DNA of 32,508 bases from Gemmatimonadota bacterium (GCA_003220975.1 QHTX01000127.1:27709-60216), one strand, 5' to 3'. Shown: positions 2,472 to 19,542, counted from the stretch's first letter. The notes: generated by a model not told the origin, from the letters alone. Made by a program: numbers and translations.

Positions 2472-3348
2472 GACGGACGCGAAACCTAGGAACGCGCGAC
2501 GGCTGGCGCTAGGGATTGTCGGCGCGGCGCTCGTGTGGCTGCTCGGCGTGTGGCCGCCGCCCGTGTGGTGGCGGGATCACTGGCCGCGCGAGACGGCGAT
2601 GATGCGAGAAGGGCGGCCGGAAGGTTGGAATGGCGGAAGGTTGGAACGTTCCAACCGTCCAACCGTCCAACCGACCGCCCTGAAGGACATCTCCCCGCTG
2701 CTCCAGCGCATGGTCATCATCGGCGAGGACTCGCGCTTTCGCACGCACCACGGGATCGACCCGGCGGAGATCGGAGACGCGCTCGGCCTGGGTCGGCGGA
2801 AGGACGCCTGGGGCACCATCGTCGCGGCGTGGCGGCAGCGCGACGCGCTCCGCGGAGCGAGCACGATCACGCAGCAGCTCGCCAAGAACCTGTACCTCTC
2901 GTCCTCGCGCAACCCGCTCCGCAAGCTCAAAGAGGCGATCACGGCGTTGCGGCTCGAGCTCGCGCTCTCGAAGGATCGCATCCTGGAGCTGTATCTGAGC
3001 ATGGCGCAGTGGGGGCCCGGGCTGTGGGGCGTGGACGCGGCGAGCCGCGCCTACTTTGGCGTGCCGCCGTCGCGCCTCGACGAGGCGCAGGCCGCCGCCC
3101 TCGCCGCGACCCTGCCCCACCCACTCACCTCCACCCCTACGTTCCGGCCCGACCGCACGCTGGCGCGGCGCGACCTCATCCTGGCTCGCTACCACGGCGG
3201 GGACGTGTACATCCCGCCGGAAGAGGAGGACACGGTACTGCTCGTGCCGCCGGTGATTGCGCCGCCCATCGAGTCGCTGAACGTTCAGCTGCGGGTGCAG
3301 GCCGACACAGCACAGGACACAGCGACCGTTCACAAGGACAGCAGCTAG
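2470..3348 (+). CDS. mtgA: Monofunctional peptidoglycan glycosyltransferase (GT51)
   Basis: ATG at 2470 (MTDAKPRNARRLALGIVGAALVWLLGV is a TM anchor). GT51 motifs IIGEDSRFRTHHGID, RGASTITQQLAKNLYL and RKLKEA. The track ORF from 2233 is an upstream extension. Confidence 0.85.
   Translation: MTDAKPRNARRLALGIVGAALVWLLGVWPPPVWWRDHWPRETAMMREGRPEGWNGGRLERSNRPTVQPTALKDISPLLQRMVIIGEDSRFRTHHGIDPAEIGDALGLGRRKDAWGTIVAAWRQRDALRGASTITQQLAKNLYLSSSRNPLRKLKEAITALRLELALSKDRILELYLSMAQWGPGLWGVDAASRAYFGVPPSRLDEAQAAALAATLPHPLTSTPTFRPDRTLARRDLILARYHGGDVYIPPEEEDTVLLVPPVIAPPIESLNVQLRVQADTAQDTATVHKDSS
2615..2680. repeat. Octamer-periodic inverted repeat element (type 2), inside mtgA
   Basis: GGCCGGAA GGTTGGAA TGGCGGAA GGTTGGAA cg TTCCAACC GTCCAACC GTCCAACC GACCGCCC. 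That is 4+4 octamers, 66 nt in total. The core GGTTGGAACGTTCCAACC is a perfect 18-bp palindrome. Confidence 0.85.
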
Positions 3349-3457
3349 ACGAGACGGGTAGACGGACAGACGGATAGCGGCGGGAAGCGAGAAGGGGTTA
3401 GGATCGAGCTCTCCTGACCCTACTCACTGGACACCGCTACCCGTCTACCCCGTCTAG
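3345..3457. terminator. Long imperfect palindrome filling the convergent mtgA/dnaN spacer; candidate bidirectional terminator built from octamer repeats
   Basis: Left arm: GACGGGTA GACGGACA GACGGATA (3353-3376). Right arm: TACCCGTC TACCCCGTC (3438-3454). Central hairpin GGGGTTAGGA-tcgagctc-TCCTGACCCT (3394-3421). The outermost CTAGAC / GTCTAG contain both genes' TAG stops. Confidence 0.55.
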
Positions 3458-4566
3458 TCCACTAGCCTTAAGGGCATGACCAACGCCATATAGCTCGCCG
3501 GGTCGTCCCAGCCGACGGGCTCGACGGTGGCCGCGCGCTCGGGGGCCTTGAAGGTGAAGCGCACCTCGTCGGTGGGCATGAATTTGAGGATCTCGAGCAG
3601 GTACTGGGCGTTGAACCCGATCTCGAGCGGCTCGCCCTCGTAGGTCACCGCGAGCTCGTCCTGGGCCTCACCCAGGTCCGGCGTCTGGACGGAAAACTTG
3701 GCCGCACCACCCGCGAACGCGAGGCGAATCCGGTGCGTCTGGTCGCTCGCCACGACGCTCATGCGCCGCAGCGCCGCCGCCATCGCCGCCTTGTCCACGG
3801 TGGCGGCCTTGTCGTTCTCCCGCGGAATCACCTGCTCGTAGTTCGGGTACGGCCCCTCGATCAGGCGCGAGAATACGAGCGTGCCGCCGGCCCGGAACCC
3901 GATGTGGTTGTCGCTGCGCGCGATCTCGATGTCGGCATCGGCGGCGAACAGCCGGCGGATTTGCTCGAGCGCCTTGGGCGGCACGATCAGATCGGCGGTG
4001 GAGCCCCCGCTCGCGGGGACATCCATCTTCGCGAGGCGATGCCCGTTGGTCGCCACCATGCGCATCCGGTCGGGCCGCAGCTCCCACAGCACGCCGTTGA
4101 GGATCGGCCGGCTCTCCTCCGTGGATGCCGCGAACGCGACGTGGCCCACGAGCTTGTGCACCACGCCCGCCGCGGCCTTCCACGCGCCGTCGAACTTCAC
4201 GGCGGGGAACGACGGGAACTCCTCCCGCGGCAGCCCTAGGAGCTTGAACTTGGAGCGCCCGCACTCGATCGCGACGCGCGACTCACCGGCGGCGGTAAAG
4301 CGCACCGGCCCGGAGGGCAACTCGCGCGCGATGTCGACCAGCTTCTTCGCGGGTAGCGTGACCGCGCCGTCTGCATCCACGTCGGCCGGTGCGGTCGTGC
4401 TCACGGCGATGTCGAGGTCGGTCCCCGAAAGGCGGAGACCGCCTCCCTGCTTCGTCGCCTCGACCAGGACGTTGGCCAGCACCGGCAGCGTCGTCTTGGC
4501 CGGGATCGCCGCCGCGACCGCGCCCAGGCCTTCCTGCAACTGCTCTCGTGTGATCGTGAACTTCAT
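3454..4566 (-). CDS. dnaN: DNA polymerase III beta sliding clamp
   Basis: 370 aa, MKFTITREQLQEGL...MPLRLVD, with typical clamp length and N- and C-termini. Lies directly downstream of dnaA. Confidence 0.95.
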   Translation of the reverse strand: MKFTITREQLQEGLGAVAAAIPAKTTLPVLANVLVEATKQGGGLRLSGTDLDIAVSTTAPADVDADGAVTLPAKKLVDIARELPSGPVRFTAAGESRVAIECGRSKFKLLGLPREEFPSFPAVKFDGAWKAAAGVVHKLVGHVAFAASTEESRPILNGVLWELRPDRMRMVATNGHRLAKMDVPASGGSTADLIVPPKALEQIRRLFAADADIEIARSDNHIGFRAGGTLVFSRLIEGPYPNYEQVIPRENDKAATVDKAAMAAALRRMSVVASDQTHRIRLAFAGGAAKFSVQTPDLGEAQDELAVTYEGEPLEIGFNAQYLLEILKFMPTDEVRFTFKAPERAATVEPVGWDDPASYMALVMPLRLVD

Positions 4567-7041: not shown

Positions 7042-8712
7042 GTGGAACGACGCGTCATTCTGGCAATCGTCCTGATGCTCATCGTGGCCGTGCTGCCGAG
7101 CATCCTGGTTCCTCGGAAGAAGCAGCCGGTTAGTCGGATCGGCGGATCGGCGGATAGTACCCGTGCGGCTCGGGAGAGCGTGGCGGCGCCTCCGGCGACA
7201 GCCCAACGACCATCCGGCTATCCGCCTACCCGCCTATCCGCCACCAAGGCGGAGACCGTGTGGGTCACCTCCCCACTCTACCGCCTCGGGTTCAGCACAC
7301 AGGGCGGGGAGCTGGTGTGGGCGGAGCTCACGGGCTACCGGTCGTTCGCGCCTCAGGACTCGGGCCGCCCGGTGCAGCTCGTGCCCCAGGGAGTGCCGCT
7401 ACTCGCCTCCGCCCTGACGGCGGGCGGGGACACGGTGAGTCTCGCGGACTGGCACCTGATGCCGAGCGCGTCCGCGCTTCGGGTGGGCCAAGACACCGTC
7501 ACACTGAGGTTTACGGCGTCGCGCGGCGGGGCGGATCTGAGCCTGGAGTACCGCTTTTTCCCCGGGGAGTACGACTTCCAGGTGCGCGGCCAGGTTGCCC
7601 GGCCCGGGGGTGGCGGCGGCGCGACGCTGCTGGTCGGCTTGGGGGACGGCGTCCGCTCGGTCGAAGCCGATTCGATCGACGACTTCCGGCACTACGCGGT
7701 CGTGACGAAGGCGGCGAAGACGCAGAGCACCGCGTTCTTGAAGCCCGGCGAGCGCAAGGTGCTCGACGGGCCGTTCGAGTGGGCGGGCGTGAAGTCCAAG
7801 TACTTCTTCGTCGCCGCCCTGGCGATCGCGGAGAACCAACCACAGTTCGGCGGCGGCATCGCCATGGGCGGGCCGAGCAGCGTGACGGCCTCCTCGCTGT
7901 TCGGCAAGTCGGGGGTGGCGACGCGCACCGCCCTGGCGCTCACGCTCCCCGTCCCCCCCGCCGGGGCCTTCGGCTACGACGTGTACGTCGGCCCGCTCGA
8001 GTATCGGCGGCTCGCGCGTCTCGGCCACGACCTGGACGACGCCAATCCCTACGGCGGGTTCCTGCGGCCCATCATCCAACCGGTGTCCGTCCTGGTGGTG
8101 AACATCCTCATCTGGATGCACGACCGGTTGAGTCTCGCGTACGGCTGGGTGCTCATCATTTTCGGTGTCCTGATCCGCGTGCTCCTCTGGCCGCTCAACC
8201 AGAAGGCGATGGAGTCCAGCATCCGGATGCAGGCGGTGGCGCCGCTGCTCCGGGACGTGCAGCAGCGGTACAAGGCCGAGCCGGAGCGACTGCAGCGCGA
8301 GACCCTGCGGATCTACAAGGAGCACAACGTCAATCCGCTCGGCGGCTGCCTCCCGATGCTGTTGCCCCTGCCCGTCCTGTTCGCCCTTTTCTTCGTGTTC
8401 GCGAACACCATCGAGTTCCGGGGTGTGCCGTTCCTCTGGCTGCCCGATCTCTCGCGGCCGGACCCGCTCTACATCATTCCACTGGTGATGGGGCTCTCGA
8501 TGTTCGCCGTGTCGAAGCTCGGCCAGATTGGCGTGCCCCCCAACCCGCAGACGAAGACCATGTTGTACTTCATGCCGGCGTTCATGACGCTGTTGTTCCT
8601 GCGGTTCGCGTCGGGTCTGAACCTGTACTATGCGGTGCAGAACATCGTGAGCCTGCCGCAGCAGTACCAGATCGCGATGCGGCGCATGCGGGAGCAGGGA
8701 AAGCGAACCTAG
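7042..8712 (+). CDS. yidC: Membrane protein insertase YidC
   Basis: N-terminal TM, a large periplasmic domain, and a C-terminal Oxa1-like core (WPLNQKAMES..., NPLGGCLPMLLPLPVLFALF). 556 aa. Confidence 0.95.
   Translation: MERRVILAIVLMLIVAVLPSILVPRKKQPVSRIGGSADSTRAARESVAAPPATAQRPSGYPPTRLSATKAETVWVTSPLYRLGFSTQGGELVWAELTGYRSFAPQDSGRPVQLVPQGVPLLASALTAGGDTVSLADWHLMPSASALRVGQDTVTLRFTASRGGADLSLEYRFFPGEYDFQVRGQVARPGGGGGATLLVGLGDGVRSVEADSIDDFRHYAVVTKAAKTQSTAFLKPGERKVLDGPFEWAGVKSKYFFVAALAIAENQPQFGGGIAMGGPSSVTASSLFGKSGVATRTALALTLPVPPAGAFGYDVYVGPLEYRRLARLGHDLDDANPYGGFLRPIIQPVSVLVVNILIWMHDRLSLAYGWVLIIFGVLIRVLLWPLNQKAMESSIRMQAVAPLLRDVQQRYKAEPERLQRETLRIYKEHNVNPLGGCLPMLLPLPVLFALFFVFANTIEFRGVPFLWLPDLSRPDPLYIIPLVMGLSMFAVSKLGQIGVPPNPQTKTMLYFMPAFMTLLFLRFASGLNLYYAVQNIVSLPQQYQIAMRRMREQGKRT
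7125..7242. repeat. Octamer-periodic inverted repeat element (type 1), inside yidC
   Basis: Left arm: GCCGGTTA GTCGGATC GGCGGATC GGCGGATA (7125-7156). 54-nt spacer. Right arm: CATCCGGC TATCCGCC TACCCGCC TATCCGCC (7211-7242). Confidence 0.8.
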
Positions 8713-8745
8713 GGAAGCGGGAAGCGCGAAAGGGTAAGGGGCAGG

Positions 8746-10089
8746 GTGCTGTCGGATCCGATCGTCGCGCTGGCCACGCCGGCGGGTCGTTCCGCCCTCG
8801 CTCTCATCCGGCTGTCGGGGAAGGCCGCGTTCGACGTCGCCGCCCGCGCACTCCGTCCGTTTCGCCCCGACCCGCCTCGCGTCGTGCGCCGCGTCCGGCT
8901 CGTCCATCCCGACAGCGGCGAGCTCGTCGACGACGCGCTCGCGGCGGCGTTCCCCGGCCCGCGCACGTACACCGGCGATGACCTGGTCGAGATCACGACG
9001 CACGGCGGGCTGCTGGTGCCGGCGGCCGCCGTGGCCGCGCTCGTCGCGGCGGGCGCCCGGCCGGCAGCGCCGGGCGAGTTCACGCGACGCGCCGTGCTCA
9101 ACGGCAAGCTCGACCTGCTCCAGGCGGAGGCGACGGCGGACCTGATCGACGCGGGCGCACCCGCGCAGGCGCGCCGCGCGCTGCACCAGCTCGACCGCGG
9201 TCTGTCGGCGCGGCTCGAGCTGCTGCGGGCCGAGCTGCTCGAGCTCGAGGCGCTGATCGCCTACGAGATCGATTTCCCCGAAGAAGACGAGGGCCCCGTG
9301 GCGCCGGAGCGGGTGGAGCGCGCCTGGCGCGCGGCGCGCGACCGGATCGCCCAGCTGCTCGCGACCGCGCCTGAGGGTGAGCGGTTGCGCGAAGGCGCGC
9401 TCGTGGTGATCGCCGGGCGGCCCAACGCCGGCAAGTCCTCTCTCTTCAACGCGCTGCTCGGTACCGAGCGCGCGATCGTGACCGAGATTCCCGGGACGAC
9501 ACGCGACGCGATCGAGGCCCACGCCGTGATCGAGGGATTCCCGTTTCGACTGGCGGATACGGCCGGGCTGCGCGACAGCGGGGACCGCGTCGAGCGCCTG
9601 GGGATCGAGGTCTCGCGGAGGTATCTCGGAGCGGCGGACCTGGTTCTCTATTGCGAAGAGGCCGGGGACGAGTCCGCGCGTGAAGAGTTTCTGACGCGAG
9701 TCCATGCTCCCGTCGTCGTCGTCCGCACCAAGATCGACCTGCGCCCACGGTCCGACCGTCCGACCGTCCGACCGACCGTCGCGGTCTCGGTGGTGACGGG
9801 GGACGGGCTCGCGGAGCTGAAGCGCCGCCTCGCCCAGGAGGCGTTCGGGCGCTTGCTCGGCCTCGGCGACGTGGAGCCCGTGGTGACGCGGGCGCGGCAC
9901 CGCATGGCGCTCGAGCGCGCCCTCGCGGAGGTCGAGGCGTTCCACGGGGCGCGCGCGGGCGGGGTCGAGGCCGCGGCGGCGGCGACGCATCTCCGCGCCG
10001 CCGTCGGCGCGCTCGACGATCTGATCGGCGTCGTGACGCCGGACGACGTGCTGGACCGCGTGTTCGCGAGCTTTTGCGTTGGGAAATGA
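8746..10089 (+). CDS. mnmE: tRNA modification GTPase MnmE
   Basis: G1 GRPNAGKSSLFNAL, G3 DTAGLR, G4-like RTKIDL, and the C-terminal FCVGK tetrapeptide motif. Confidence 0.95.
   Translation: MLSDPIVALATPAGRSALALIRLSGKAAFDVAARALRPFRPDPPRVVRRVRLVHPDSGELVDDALAAAFPGPRTYTGDDLVEITTHGGLLVPAAAVAALVAAGARPAAPGEFTRRAVLNGKLDLLQAEATADLIDAGAPAQARRALHQLDRGLSARLELLRAELLELEALIAYEIDFPEEDEGPVAPERVERAWRAARDRIAQLLATAPEGERLREGALVVIAGRPNAGKSSLFNALLGTERAIVTEIPGTTRDAIEAHAVIEGFPFRLADTAGLRDSGDRVERLGIEVSRRYLGAADLVLYCEEAGDESAREEFLTRVHAPVVVVRTKIDLRPRSDRPTVRPTVAVSVVTGDGLAELKRRLAQEAFGRLLGLGDVEPVVTRARHRMALERALAEVEAFHGARAGGVEAAAAATHLRAAVGALDDLIGVVTPDDVLDRVFASFCVGK
9750..9781. repeat. Octamer tandem array (type 2 half-element), inside mnmE
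   Basis: GTCCGACC x3 then GACCGTCG. Nearly identical to the right arm of the mtgA element (GTCCAACC GTCCAACC GACCGCCC). The partner arm is only degenerate. Confidence 0.7.
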
Positions 10090-10119: not shown

Positions 10120-10210
10120 AGGAGAAGCGGTCTATTTCGGGCCCAACGACGGGCGCGCTCGCTCCGTAATCCCTGTGCAACCGCGCTCACACCCGGGAGG
10201 ACTCGAGCCG

Positions 10211-10753
10211 ATGGACACGCAGTCCGATGCCGCCTTCCCCATGCACCACCCCGAGCGCTGGCTCGCCGTGCTGCGGATCGCGGTGGGCCTGTGGTTCGCC
10301 AAGGCGATCGTCACCAAGCTCAGCGTGACGCTGGTGTGGGGCTTCCTCCCGCTGCCCACCGCCTCCGACCGCTGGCTGCACGTGATGCCGATCCTCGTGG
10401 GGAAGTACGCCGAAGGGAATCCCGTCGGCTTCTTCAAGACTTTTCTTCAGGACACCGTCATTCCGCATGCTTCGCTGTTCGCGCAGCTCACGGCCTTCGG
10501 CGAGGTCGCCGTAGGGCTCGGGCTGGTGCTCGGGTGTCTGACCGCGCTCGCGTCAGGGATCGGGCTCGTGCTGGTGCTGAACTACGGTCTCGCGGTCCAA
10601 TGGCAGGGCTCGGCGCAGCAGGGCTTCCACTACCTGCTGCTCACGAGCCTGGTCGTGATCCTGGCCGCGCGGGCCGGGCGTACCTGGGGGCTCGACGGCT
10701 GGGCCCGCGCCCGCCGCCCCGGGTCCTGGCTGGCGCGCACGCCGCTCGGTTAG
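10211..10753 (+). CDS. DoxX/DoxD-like integral membrane protein
   Basis: ATG 10211 with SD GGGAGGA. Four hydrophobic helices. LRIAVGLWF near the N-terminus and a GLDGW tail resemble the DoxX/DoxD family. The track start at 10079 is an extension. Confidence 0.5.
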   Translation: MDTQSDAAFPMHHPERWLAVLRIAVGLWFAKAIVTKLSVTLVWGFLPLPTASDRWLHVMPILVGKYAEGNPVGFFKTFLQDTVIPHASLFAQLTAFGEVAVGLGLVLGCLTALASGIGLVLVLNYGLAVQWQGSAQQGFHYLLLTSLVVILAARAGRTWGLDGWARARRPGSWLARTPLG

Positions 10754-11724
10754 GGAATGTACAGCAGGTCGTTGGGGCGCTCGCCCACGGGCACGGCGCC
10801 GACCACCTTGCGGATCCCGGTATCGATGACCGATACGGTGTTGGAGCGCCCGTCGGCGGTGTAGAGCCGGCGGCCGTCGGGCGAGAGCGCGATGCCCCAC
10901 GGACGTTTCCCCACCGGGATGGTGTCGAGTACGCGGCTCGTGGCCACGTCGATCACGCTGACGGTGGCGGCGGCGCCTTCGGTCAGATAGGCGAGCCGCG
11001 CGTCCGGGCTGAACGCGATGCGCACGGGCTTCGTCTTCCCGTCGCGGATCGGGAACTGCCGCAGGACGCTGTCGGTGGCCACGTCGATCACCGTGACGTT
11101 CCCGCCCGCCTCGGCGCTGACCCAGACATGTCGGCCGTCCGGGGTGAACGCCACGGTGCGCGGGTTGTCGCCGACGTGGATCGTCCGGAGGACCGCGCCC
11201 GTCTTCGCGTCGAGCACGGAGACATTGTTGCTGGTCTCGGCGGTGACGTAGACCTTAGTGCCGTCGCGCGTGATCCCGATCCCCTCGGGCTCCACTCCCA
11301 CCGGCGTCGAGAACAGCAGCCTCCCGGTCGCGACCTCGATGGCCGAGGCGTGGGCGATCTCCTCGTTGGACACGTACGCCGTCTTGCCGTCCGGGCTGAG
11401 CACCACCAGCTCAGGGTCGCGGCCCGCGGGGAGCGTCCCCCTCATCTTCGCTGCCGCGACGTCGATTACGCCGAGCGCGTTGTCTTCCCCGAGGGCGACG
11501 TAAGCGGTCCGGTGGTCGGGGCTCAGGGCCATGCCGCGCGGCCGGCGGCCGACGGCGATCGTGGCGATCGCGCCGACGCTGCGCGGCGAGATCACGGTGA
11601 TGCTGTTGCTGACCTCGTTGCTGACGTACAACACGGGCTCGGGCGTCGGCGCCACCAGTGCGGCACCAACGAGCGGCGCCACGAGCAGGAGGACGGCGCT
11701 CTCGCGCCATGAACCCGACGTCAT
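10750..11724 (-). CDS. YVTN-type beta-propeller protein of the kind associated with PQQ-dependent catabolism clusters
   Basis: Start ATG 11724 (MTSGSWRESAVLLLVAPLVGAALVA is a signal or anchor). Repeated units of the form P.G.A.SPDG...YV.....N.VSVID. Confidence 0.8.
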   Translation of the reverse strand: MTSGSWRESAVLLLVAPLVGAALVAPTPEPVLYVSNEVSNSITVISPRSVGAIATIAVGRRPRGMALSPDHRTAYVALGEDNALGVIDVAAAKMRGTLPAGRDPELVVLSPDGKTAYVSNEEIAHASAIEVATGRLLFSTPVGVEPEGIGITRDGTKVYVTAETSNNVSVLDAKTGAVLRTIHVGDNPRTVAFTPDGRHVWVSAEAGGNVTVIDVATDSVLRQFPIRDGKTKPVRIAFSPDARLAYLTEGAAATVSVIDVATSRVLDTIPVGKRPWGIALSPDGRRLYTADGRSNTVSVIDTGIRKVVGAVPVGERPNDLLYIP

Positions 11725-13876: not shown

Positions 13877-13914
13877 CACCCGGTGCCGGAGCACGTTCGC
13901 TCCGGCACCGGGTG
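13877..13914 (-). terminator. Perfect 16-bp stem-loop between xoxF and xoxJ (attenuator or mRNA-stabilising hairpin)
   Basis: CACCCGGTGCCGGAGC-acgttc-GCTCCGGCACCGGGTG. The arms are exact reverse complements. Begins 28 nt downstream of the xoxF stop. No clear U tract follows. Confidence 0.6.
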
Positions 13915-17450: not shown

Positions 17451-18079
17451 GGGACCAGTTCGACTGCCAACCCCGCGCCGTCGGCGCGGTCGGGGAGGGC
17501 GTCGCGCCGCGAGGCCGCGCCGTGCAGGAAACGGTCGAGCAGGACGTAGCCGTGCTCGGTGAGCACGGACTCGGGATGGAACTGCAGCCCCGTGACCGGG
17601 TGACGGACGTGCTCCACGGCCATGATCTCGCCATCTTCCGCCGTCGCGGTGACGCGCAACTCGGCCGGCAGCCCCGCCCGGGCGATGGCGAGCGAGTGGT
17701 AGCGGGCGGCCGGGAACGGGTTCGGGAGCCCGGCGAACAGGCCGCGCCCGTCATGCGCGATGCGGGACGGCTTGCCGTGCACGGGGCGCCCGGCGCGCGC
17801 GATGCCGGCGCCGTACGCCGCCCCGATGCACTGGTGCCCGAGGCAGACGCCGAGGATGGGGATCGTGGGGCCGAAGCGGCGGATCACCTCGATCGAGATC
17901 CCGGCTTCGGCCGGCGAGCAGGGCCCGGGTGAGATGATGATGCGGGACGGGTCGAGCGCCGCGATCTCGTCCGGCGTCGTGGCGTCGTGGCGTCGCACGA
18001 CGGCCTCTTCCCCCAGCTCTCGGACGTAGCGGGCCAGGTTGTAGACGAACGAGTCGTAGTTGTCGATCAGCAGGATCAT
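17447..18079 (-). CDS. pabA: Glutamine amidotransferase, aminodeoxychorismate/anthranilate synthase component II
   Basis: MILLIDNYDSFVYNL, catalytic GVCLGHQ, and HPES. ATGA overlap with pabB. Confidence 0.85.
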   Translation of the reverse strand: MILLIDNYDSFVYNLARYVRELGEEAVVRRHDATTPDEIAALDPSRIIISPGPCSPAEAGISIEVIRRFGPTIPILGVCLGHQCIGAAYGAGIARAGRPVHGKPSRIAHDGRGLFAGLPNPFPAARYHSLAIARAGLPAELRVTATAEDGEIMAVEHVRHPVTGLQFHPESVLTEHGYVLLDRFLHGAASRRDALPDRADGAGLAVELVP

Positions 18080-19542
18080 GGCGTCAGAGCGGCGACGAGC
18101 CCGCGCGCCTTGTCGAGGGTCTCGCGGTACTCCTGCTCGGGATCGGAGTCGGCCACGATGCCGCCGCCGACCTGAAAATACACGTCGCGGCCGAGCACCA
18201 GGTAGGTGCGGATCACGATGTTCGTGTCGAGCGCGCCCGTGACGCTCACATAGCCGATCGCGCCGCAATACGCGCCGCGCGCGGTGGGCTCGAGCTCCGC
18301 GATGATCTGCATCGCGCGCACTTTCGGGGCGCCCGTGATCGAGCCGCCCGGAAAGGCCGCCCGCAGCAGGTCCACGCCATCGTGCTCCGGCGCGAGCTCG
18401 CCCACGACGGTCGAGACCATGTGATGCACCGTCGCGTAGTGCTCGATGGCGAACAGCTCGGGCACGCGCACCGTGCCGGGGCGGCACACCCGCGACAGGT
18501 CGTTCCGGAGGAGATCCACGATCATCACGTTCTCGGCCCGGTCCTTGTCGCTCTCGGCGAGCGCGAGGGCGAGGGCCGCGTCGTGCTCTGGCCCCACGCC
18601 GCGCGGCCGGGTGCCCTTGATGGGCCGGGTCTCGACCTGGCGGCCGTCGTGCACCCGCAGGAACCGCTCGGGAGACGAGCTCGCGATGACCACGTCGCCG
18701 CAGTCGAGGAATGCGGCGAACGGCGCCGGATTGCGTCGCCGCAGCCGCCGGTATAGGTCGAGCGGCGTGCCGGCGAGCGGCGCCTCGAGCCGCTGCGACA
18801 GGTTCGCCTGAAAGATGTCGCCCGCGAAGATGTACTCGATCACGCGGGCGACCGCGTCGAGGTAGCCCTCGCGCGTGAAGTTGGAGCGCACGCCGGGGAC
18901 GCCGGGGACGGGATACGAAGGGGCGGATAGGCGGTTAGCCGGATAGGCGGTTAGCCGGTTAGCAGTGCTGTTACTATCCGCCCATCCGCCTATCCGCCTA
19001 TCCCTCAGCCGCTCCTTCACGAATGTCAGCCGCCGCGCCGCGCGGTCGGTTCGAGCCGTCCCTCGCTCGGGGATCCCCGTCGAGATCACCCACGCCCGCC
19101 CGGCGGGATGGTCCCACGCGATCACCCAGTCATACAGGCCGAGCAGCACGTCGGGGAGTGCGTAATCGTCGTAGCGCGGGCGCGGCACGCGCTCGAGCGT
19201 CGCTCCCCAGTCGTATCCCAGGTAGCCCGCGGCGCCGCCCTGAAACGGGGGGAGGTCCGCCAGCGGCTCCGCCGCGTGCGGCGCGAGCAGCGCGCGAGCA
19301 TGCGTCAGGGCGTCCGGCTCCACGCGCACCCAGCGCCCATCCACGAGCTGCTGCGTCAGGAGGGCCTTCGAGCGGACGGCGCTCCAGGGGTCGGCCGTGA
19401 GAAACGAGTGACGGCCGAGGTGCTCCGCGTCGGTGGCGCTGTCCAGGAACACCAGGGACGGCAACCCTGCGAATCGGACGCACGTCTCGAACGGGTCGGG
19501 GGCGGGGACGAGCTCCTCGACGAGCGGCCGCGCGTCGCTCAC
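18076..19542 (-). CDS. pabB: Aminodeoxychorismate synthase component I
   Basis: Chorismate-binding motifs SPERFL, PGGSITGAPK and RGAYCGAIGY. GTG 19542 overlaps the upstream stop (GTGA). The track start at 19653 is an extension. Confidence 0.85.
   Translation of the reverse strand: MSDARPLVEELVPAPDPFETCVRFAGLPSLVFLDSATDAEHLGRHSFLTADPWSAVRSKALLTQQLVDGRWVRVEPDALTHARALLAPHAAEPLADLPPFQGGAAGYLGYDWGATLERVPRPRYDDYALPDVLLGLYDWVIAWDHPAGRAWVISTGIPERGTARTDRAARRLTFVKERLRDRRIGGWADSNSTANRLTAYPANRLSAPSYPVPGVPGVRSNFTREGYLDAVARVIEYIFAGDIFQANLSQRLEAPLAGTPLDLYRRLRRRNPAPFAAFLDCGDVVIASSSPERFLRVHDGRQVETRPIKGTRPRGVGPEHDAALALALAESDKDRAENVMIVDLLRNDLSRVCRPGTVRVPELFAIEHYATVHHMVSTVVGELAPEHDGVDLLRAAFPGGSITGAPKVRAMQIIAELEPTARGAYCGAIGYVSVTGALDTNIVIRTYLVLGRDVYFQVGGGIVADSDPEQEYRETLDKARGLVAALTP
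18910..19004. repeat. Octamer-periodic inverted repeat element (type 1), inside pabB
   Basis: GGGATAcgaagg. Left arm: GGCGGATA GGCGGTTA GCCGGATA GGCGGTTA GCCGGTTA. 13-nt loop. Right arm: TATCCGCC CATCCGCC TATCCGCC TATCCC. Confidence 0.85.

Follow-up and report, generated by a model that had tools for sequence, protein, structure and literature searches.

How does a tandem repeat with an 8-nt unit, which is not a multiple of three, persist inside conserved protein-coding genes? This question is raised by a stretch of 32,508 nt from a Gemmatimonadales genome (QHTX01000127.1:27709-60216; hereafter the window). The G+C content of the window is 71%, and it contains the region dnaA-dnaN-rnpA-yidC-mnmE, with pabB ~10 kb beyond. 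Both yidC and pabB, which are essential-type genes, contain, in frame, an element made of two arrays of an octamer that are inverted relative to each other. A preliminary description of the window regarded the two elements as copies of an invading or expanding repeat kept open by selection. Based on comparison with related genomes, they are probably hairpins of long-unit simple sequence repeats (SSRs), old and fast-evolving in dispensable linkers, which change by slippage, copying and recombination under the filter of the open reading frame (ORF).

DNA of the yidC locus was taken from 80 orthologous loci in metagenomes, which gave 76 segments with 69-99% identity. The alignment of the yidC element contains 47 distinct sequences. 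Arrays were counted in 1.03 Mb of related DNA around yidC, and the chance level was obtained from 3-nt-block shuffles. The locus L122 (97% identity over 18.8 kb) is the reference for divergence between close pairs.

Structure of the yidC and pabB Elements

The yidC element corresponds to 7133-7242, and the pabB element to 18922-19004 on the minus strand. In both, a G-rich array of GGCGGATN units is followed by a loop and a complementary C-rich array, and the whole element is in frame (Table 1). Tandem Repeats Finder (TRF) reports period 8, 2.6-5 copies and 81-100% match, and a separate array scan agrees. Both are long hairpins, with folding z-scores of -2.1 (yidC) and -6.5 (pabB). The codons across the G arm are GTT AGT CGG ATC GGC GGA TCG GCG GAT AGT in yidC, translated to VSRIGGSADS, and AGG GAT AGG CGG ATA GGC GGA TGG GCG GAT AGT in pabB, translated to RDRRIGGWADS. 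On the Pfam domain map, the YidC element lies between the first transmembrane helix and the periplasmic domain, and the PabB element between the N-terminal region and the chorismate-binding domain.

Table 1. Positions of the host genes, the parts of their elements, and other arrays in the window.
Feature	Position	Strand	Remarks
yidC	7042-8712	+	Start at 7042 sets the frame
yidC G-rich arm	7133-7157	+	GTCGGATC GGCGGATC GGCGGATA G; translation SRIGGSADS
yidC in-frame TCG codon	7147-7149	+	Canonical unit would put TAG here; frame from start 7042; orthologues CAG, TTG or TCG
yidC loop	7158-7211	+	..TRAARESVAAPPATAQRPS..; 54 nt; peptide related across orthologues
yidC C-rich arm	7212-7242	+	ATCCGGCT ATCCGCCT ACCCGCCT ATCCGCC; translation GYPPTRLSA within SGYPPTRLSAT
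pabB	19653-18076	-	PabB coding span
pabB G-rich arm	18974-19004	-	GGGATA GGCGGATA GGCGGATG GGCGGATA G; translation RDRRIGGWADS
pabB in-frame TGG codon	18984-18982	-	In place of would-be TAG; orthologues W, S, Q or R
pabB loop	18964-18973	-	Short (10 nt), between arms
pabB C-rich arm	18922-18963	-	Five units (CTAACCGG/CTAACCGC/CTATCCGG/CTATCCGC); translation ANRLTAYPANRLSAP
24-nt (three-unit) extra segment of pabB	18934-18957	-	In window and P0121, not in ~20 sequences of 97-98% identity; placement within the repeat ambiguous
GGTTGGAA/TTCCAACC octamer hairpin	2615-2680	+	Almost loopless; 5' part of transglycosylase ORF, just before the transglycosylase domain
AGACGGNT-array hairpin	3346-3457		Intergenic, between convergent transglycosylase and dnaN genes
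Period-7 GGGAAGC array	8712-8730	+	yidC-mnmE spacer; no inverted partner
GTCCGACC array	9750-9778	+	In frame in mnmE; partner G-array ~60-100 nt upstream in relatives, lost in window

The resemblance between the two elements was described earlier in terms of order and phase. It is true that both genes read the G-rich arm first, but an inverted repeat reads so in either orientation, by symmetry. It is also true that both G arms end with GCG GAT AGT, and this end phase alone carries information, but agreement in it between two copies has a probability of 1/3. Since 8 and 3 have no common factor, an octamer array gives the same 8-residue periodic peptide whatever the frame, and the similarity of the encoded peptides is therefore automatic. 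The proposed bias in frame cannot be seen from two copies. Five of six independent coding hairpins have the same end phase (post hoc, P ~0.02), which is suggestive only.

In a relative with 98% identity (L201, 1-7443), pabB appears to form an operon with DUF6513/pterin-binding, 4HFCP synthase, GATase, DUF447 and GHMP kinase genes. Together, these genes recall methanopterin-type pterin biosynthesis.

Stop Codon Avoidance and Length Changes

The preliminary description claimed that the would-be in-frame TAG is replaced in both genes, by TCG in yidC and TGG in pabB, and the sequences at both codons confirm it. The replacement extends to the orthologues. The in-frame unit is never TAG in any of the 12 distinct yidC sequences with TAG-containing units. 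Their in-frame codon is TCG in the window, L137, L149 and L155, CAG in five sequences and L132, and TTG in two. The out-of-frame units of the same 12 sequences are TAG in ~31 of 36 cases (alignment read by eye). In an automated table covering all loci, interior units are TAG in 39/42 cases in noncoding DNA, 30/32 in antisense, 13/13 in sense out-of-frame, and 0/3 in-frame; overall, 82 of the 87 units outside the in-frame position are TAG. At the critical codon of pabB, orthologues encode W, S, Q or R. These facts indicate that the ORFs are kept open by selection, as had been suggested.

Relatives with GGCGGACA-type units in yidC also have CAG at the in-frame codon. Since CAG is the state of these relatives, the C-to-T change seems to have spread, in several yidC lineages, to all units but the one in which a stop would result. 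In pabB, three states of the DNA are seen. The window is altered at the in-frame unit only, L202 has GATC in three units, and L203 is changed throughout. L203 has GGCGGATG in every unit of the G arm and the matching CATCCGCC in the C arm. Both arms were converted together, and thus the stop-free variant took over both.

It had been expected that intergenic copies would have canonical TAG units and coding copies TAG-avoiding substitutions. The comparison has to be restated, because whole arrays of GATC or GATG units are also found in noncoding DNA. GATG has also swept both arms in one pabB lineage. The informative signal is therefore the single odd unit in a TAG-type array.

The length changes conform to the reading frame too. 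The pabB C arm of the window and P0121 is longer by 24 nt, or three units, than that of ~20 sequences with 97-98% identity. The coding copy in the transglycosylase gene differs from L122 by 12 nt. The intergenic copy differs from L122 by one 8-nt unit (indel at 3354). Frameshifted yidC alleles were sought among the yidC loci and none was found; each locus missed by the motif search proved to be intact. The repeat is visibly edited by selection on the host ORF: stops are removed and only frame-preserving length changes are allowed. Here, repeat homogenisation and purifying selection on the protein collide at the resolution of a single codon.

Age, Covariation and Turnover of the Arms

The site and the frame of the arrays are constant across all 76 yidC segments. 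A segment of comparable length occupies the element position in all of the best 120 YidC homologues (72-96% identity). Within yidC sub-clades, the peptide of the loop is recognisably related (..ARES.. or ..APES..). Arrays of the GGCGGACG type occupy the corresponding place, in the same phase, in pabB orthologues at 63-67% identity. The elements are old residents of their sites, orthologous across the sampled clade, and not recent insertions. Expansion and contraction thus remain from the earlier idea of an invading or expanding repeat, as the 24 nt in the pabB C arm illustrates, but invasion does not.

In a sister lineage (L195), 99 nt of pabB are missing, the element included. This empty site is a deletion inside the filled clade, in which extra flanking codons were removed too. 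Because L195 has lost these 99 nt, the pabB element is dispensable.

The octamer of yidC varies by lineage, and it varies in both arms together. The types are GGCGGATA (window, L121-127), GGCGGTTA/GGTA, GTCGGACG, GGCGGACA/G, ACGGAACG and GGCGGTCC. Pairing of the yidC arms was counted directly, column i against column 183-i of the 47-sequence alignment. By this count, paired cells make up 80.1%, and sliding the pairing lowers the share to 28-46%. Changes on both sides affect 117 cells, against 64 +/- 7 in shuffles, and none of 500 shuffles reached 117. RNAalifold did not return the arm-arm helix from this alignment. Among the mismatches between the arms, an excess of G.U was sought and none was found (51 G.U, 75 A.C), which means that the arms are not complementary in a way peculiar to the sense RNA. 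Within the varying octamers, G and CGG are invariant at period 8 in all 47 distinct yidC sequences, hence in all three codon phases. This invariance across codon positions cannot be ascribed to amino acid selection.

The elements diverge far faster than the genes around them. Against L122, the yidC element differs by 24.8% and the rest of the gene by 1.3%, a ~19-fold difference. The mnmE element differs by 32.8%, with flanks at 1.5-2.7%. Its C array is made of GTCCGACC in the window and of CTAACCGC/CTGTCCGC in L122. Two alleles of the yidC loop, ESVAAPPATAQRPS-like and ESIPGPVATPSPLP-like, are seen when the window is compared with L121-L127, and their distribution is incongruent with overall YidC identity. 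The loop of L121 looks like a mosaic, whose 5' half resembles L122 and whose 3' half is that of the window. The incongruent loop alleles, the mosaic L121 and the differing mnmE arrays point to replacement by recombination or conversion besides slippage. Such hypervariable segments, with 25-33% divergence between 97%-identical genomes, can mislead alignment, strain typing and recombination analyses.

Homogenisation of one unit across the whole genome was considered and rejected, since the unit family is specific to the orthologous site: AGACGNNN in the dnaN-3' spacer and upstream of yidC, and GNCGGWYN in yidC. L130 and L172 are exceptions, with one unit common to three sites.

Polarity of the Arrays

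Without exception, the G-rich array precedes the C-rich one in the 5' to 3' direction (58 arrays to 0). In an unbiased scan across phyla, 18 of 18 independent hairpins are G-first (probability ~4e-6). A C-first palindrome would fold equally well, and the G-first order is therefore a genuine asymmetry. Two causes could be considered. Fold-back copying could begin once the nascent strand has made a structured G-rich array. Alternatively, there could be selection against the C-first order, whose C-rich, G-poor tract meets Rho before its partner is transcribed. The polarity is common to the heptamer pairs of Xanthomonas and is seen from Bacteroidota to Gemmatimonadota.

Proposed Evolution of the Elements and Alternative Explanations

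Each element is an inverted repeat of two convergent arrays, in which an 8-nt unit (consensus G-N-C-G-G-W-Y-N) is repeated in tandem, so that either DNA strand or either transcript can fold into a hairpin. The host site is DNA for a dispensable protein linker. It can be proposed that the elements evolve there as follows. Replication slippage would gain or lose units. Copying from unit to unit and from arm to arm, by template switching or gene conversion, would spread changes and keep the arms complementary. Ectopic or allelic recombination might exchange whole segments between lineages or arrays. Purifying selection on the host ORF would then filter the products. A unit with TAG in frame would survive only through a one-base escape or a retained ancestral CAG, and only length changes in multiples of 3 nt, such as three units (24 nt), would persist. 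A stop-free variant could afterwards sweep the whole element.

Several facts weigh against this explanation. The invariance of G-CGG in yidC is not obviously explained by neutral self-renewal, and the constant polarity is left unexplained by it; both facts might point to a selected function. Nor is pairing always kept: the mnmE arms of L122 differ in period (7 in the G arm, 8 in the C arm) and are not complementary. Slippage and template switching are read from their products and were not directly observed. The divergence of the elements between close genomes also looks more like segment replacement than like accelerated point mutation.

An unlikely, though not negligible, alternative is a selected cis-acting nucleic-acid device, in which the G-first hairpin, or a G-quadruplex of the G arm, is kept for its action on DNA or RNA. 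It could be a structure formed only when translation is uncoupled from transcription, a stabiliser of 3' ends or a terminator, or a series of protein sites in 7-8-nt steps. The conserved G-CGG, the covariation of the arms, the strict polarity across phyla and the persistence of arrays at at least 5 orthologous sites are all consistent with such a device, as is the fact that the arms in mnmE and a xanthine-dehydrogenase-like gene bracket a conserved gene segment and not filler. Yet the mismatches carry no sign of sense-RNA selection, the unit family and even the period change at the pabB and mnmE sites, and the element is deleted naturally in L195. No U-tract follows the hairpins, while a related genome (L001) does have a canonical terminator with a U-tract, and no Rfam family matches. 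Equally doubtful is the more general form of this idea, that polarity-constrained hairpins of 7-8-nt units, G-first on both strands, are selected and kept in essential genes across Gemmatimonadales and in several phyla, and are not a neutral slippage product. These hairpins might act when ribosomes lag behind RNA polymerase, or might hide the C-rich tract on which Rho loads. Judged from their sequence, the GG-C-GG-ATA-GG tracts could at best form two-tetrad quadruplex structures.

It is much less probable that a mobile palindromic element was inserted in frame into yidC and pabB. Such an element might resemble a Rickettsia palindromic element (RPE), a miniature inverted-repeat transposable element (MITE) or a REPIN. 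The two copies in the window do have a common unit, common arm boundaries (GGCGGATAGTA ... CTATCCGCC) and a common end phase. The same octamer also occurs in many genomes and phyla, and the mnmE C-array is wholly different between 97%-identical genomes. Against insertion, the site is filled in every sampled orthologue, and the loops of the orthologues are related. The loops of yidC and pabB are unrelated to each other, and each site retains its own unit family across genomes. By inspection, no target-site duplication is seen in the flanks of either element. The arms flank native gene segments in some genes, and the sole empty site found, that of L195, arose by deletion within the element-bearing clade. 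The least credible explanation is that the repeats are kept for the flexible Gly/Arg/Asp and then Pro/Ser/Ala linker that they encode, with the DNA periodicity incidental. The elements are indeed in interdomain linkers, and the length of the YidC linker is roughly conserved. This explanation is at odds with invariant bases that return at 8-nt intervals and thus occupy every codon position, with the occurrence of such arrays in noncoding DNA too, with peptides that vary widely between lineages, and with the loss of the linker in L195.

Comparison with Known Repeats

A literature search on hairpin repeats of Gemmatimonadetes and on octanucleotide inverted tandem repeats found nothing specific, and the precedents come from papers on SSRs. 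Rehm et al. 2015 (PMC4692102) described G-rich GGGAATC heptamer SSRs in Xanthomonas, with 70-75 "convergent" pairs per genome. These arrays are conserved in position and variable in length between species, they are rarer in ORFs than expected, and no function is known for them (PMC4692102). Long SSRs with 5-11-nt units, among which heptamers are the commonest, were surveyed by Mrazek et al. 2007, as summarised in PMC4679880. According to that summary, polymerase slippage was proposed, and only units in multiples of 3 are frequent in genes (PMC4679880).

The elements reported here agree with the Xanthomonas-type SSRs in their anatomy, polarity and dynamics. They consist of G-rich units of 7-8 nt joined head to tail, with near-perfect iteration within the 5-11-nt range of long SSRs. 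One array is on each strand, and the two are convergent (G-first) and capable of forming a stem-loop. Related genomes have them at corresponding loci, with differences in length and sequence, as is the case for the arrays in Xanthomonas, where slippage is held responsible. An excess of arrays over shuffles, differences in unit number between close relatives, and convergent pairs are all found. The differences from Xanthomonas are in the unit, in the abundance within genes and in how the repeat and the reading frame interact. Here, units of 8 nt predominate, with sequences that vary from site to site and from lineage to lineage. Numerous copies are in frame inside conserved genes, and no such under-representation in ORFs is seen in the stretches of DNA sampled. 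The covariation of the arms and the editing of the repeat by ORF selection are not described in the Xanthomonas papers. The persistence of tandem repeats with units that are not a multiple of three inside conserved genes (yidC, mnmE, pabB and radA) would not be predicted from general surveys of bacterial repeats.

Families of palindromic and mobile repeats resemble the elements only in part. RPEs, reportedly described by Ogata et al. in 2000, are said to be in frame within protein genes and tolerated in permissive parts of the proteins. RPE copies are homologous over their whole 100-150 bp and behave as insertions. Presence in ORFs without disruption is common to the RPEs and the elements here. 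Unlike RPEs, the elements have only the octamer arms in common, these arms are tandem arrays, and the loops of yidC (54 nt) and pabB (10 nt) are unrelated. Nor do their sites alternate between filled and empty, as all 76 yidC orthologues are filled and the pabB site of L195 is a 99-nt deletion. Repetitive extragenic palindromic (REP) and REPIN elements are extragenic and non-tandem, have a fixed family consensus, and are mobilised by RAYT transposases. They likewise are short, abundant, hairpin-forming repeats, often in inverted pairs. The elements here differ in being largely intragenic, tandem and variable in unit. Unlike MITEs, neither the yidC nor the pabB element has a flanking direct repeat on inspection, and the arms are internal tandem arrays. 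Unlike an intragenic inverton, the yidC loop has an identical orientation in all 76 orthologous sequences. The mitochondrial genes of Nematomorpha are reported to contain coding palindromes (PMC6649704). These are also inverted repeats in protein-coding sequence with both arms translated, but they are long perfect palindromes in organelle genes, and not arrays of short units.

Other Arrays in the Window and in Related Genomes

In the 1.03 Mb of related DNA, 88 arrays of period 8 and 53 of period 7 are found, while block shuffles give 0.0 and 0.7, respectively. No other period has more than 9 arrays. In the window itself, there are 17 9-mer matches against 9.9 +/- 3.3 expected; this count alone is not significant, and 13 of the 17 are within the yidC and pabB hairpins. 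Orthologous sites with arrays are the 5' part of the transglycosylase gene, the dnaN-3' spacer, the region upstream of yidC, yidC, the yidC-mnmE spacer, mnmE and pabB. The array just upstream of yidC is known from the orthologous site of relatives and is absent in the window.

A pattern scan of reference genomes finds the same architecture in Gemmatimonadota, Vicinamibacterales and Bacteroidota. The copies are in noncoding DNA and, in frame, in radA-like, meaB-like and xanthine-dehydrogenase FAD (flavin adenine dinucleotide) subunit genes. Location in ORFs with gene-like codon GC is seen for 63 of the 98 distinct period-8 arrays near yidC, and for 27 of 85 in the pattern scan, both being samples of genomes and not whole-genome counts. 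In mnmE and the dehydrogenase gene, the "loop" encodes conserved protein, and therefore the arms there are two arrays that bracket native sequence. In mnmE, the bracketed segment encodes the TKxD nucleotide-binding motif (window 9600-9800; L122 12560-12770).

The intergenic hairpin between the transglycosylase and dnaN genes supplies the TAG stops of both genes with its outermost units. It has an inner GGGGTTAGGA...TCCTGACCC stem. Compared with L122, it has zero substitutions in addition to the one-unit indel mentioned above. At the orthologous site, relatives have AGACGCAC or AGACGCCG units. The long ORF of the transglycosylase overlaps a kinase gene on the other strand, and the assignment of its start codon is tentative.

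In the yidC-mnmE spacer, a purine-rich GGGAAGN array directly follows the yidC stop, upstream of the mnmE start, and its position is kept in many relatives. It sits where a ribosome-binding site would be expected. At 17973-17995, the window has an array of GGCGTCGT x2.9 without a partner, and a similar AGCGTCGT array is at the corresponding place in L130.

Rfam has no family at the gathering threshold in the window. The sole sub-threshold match is to the small RNA (sRNA) ASdes, with 35.3 bits against 40. This match, at 4253-4320 on the minus strand, is inside dnaN and is probably spurious. Between two minus-strand ORFs, a perfect 16-nt inverted repeat with a 6-nt loop (CACCCGGTGCCGGAGC / GCTCCGGCACCGGGTG) at 13877-13914 looks like a terminator. 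At 10200-10900, which includes a DoxX/DoxD-like gene and its surroundings, the window has 10-27 substitutions per 100 nt relative to L122, while the flanks have at most 5. This region may be a recombination tract.

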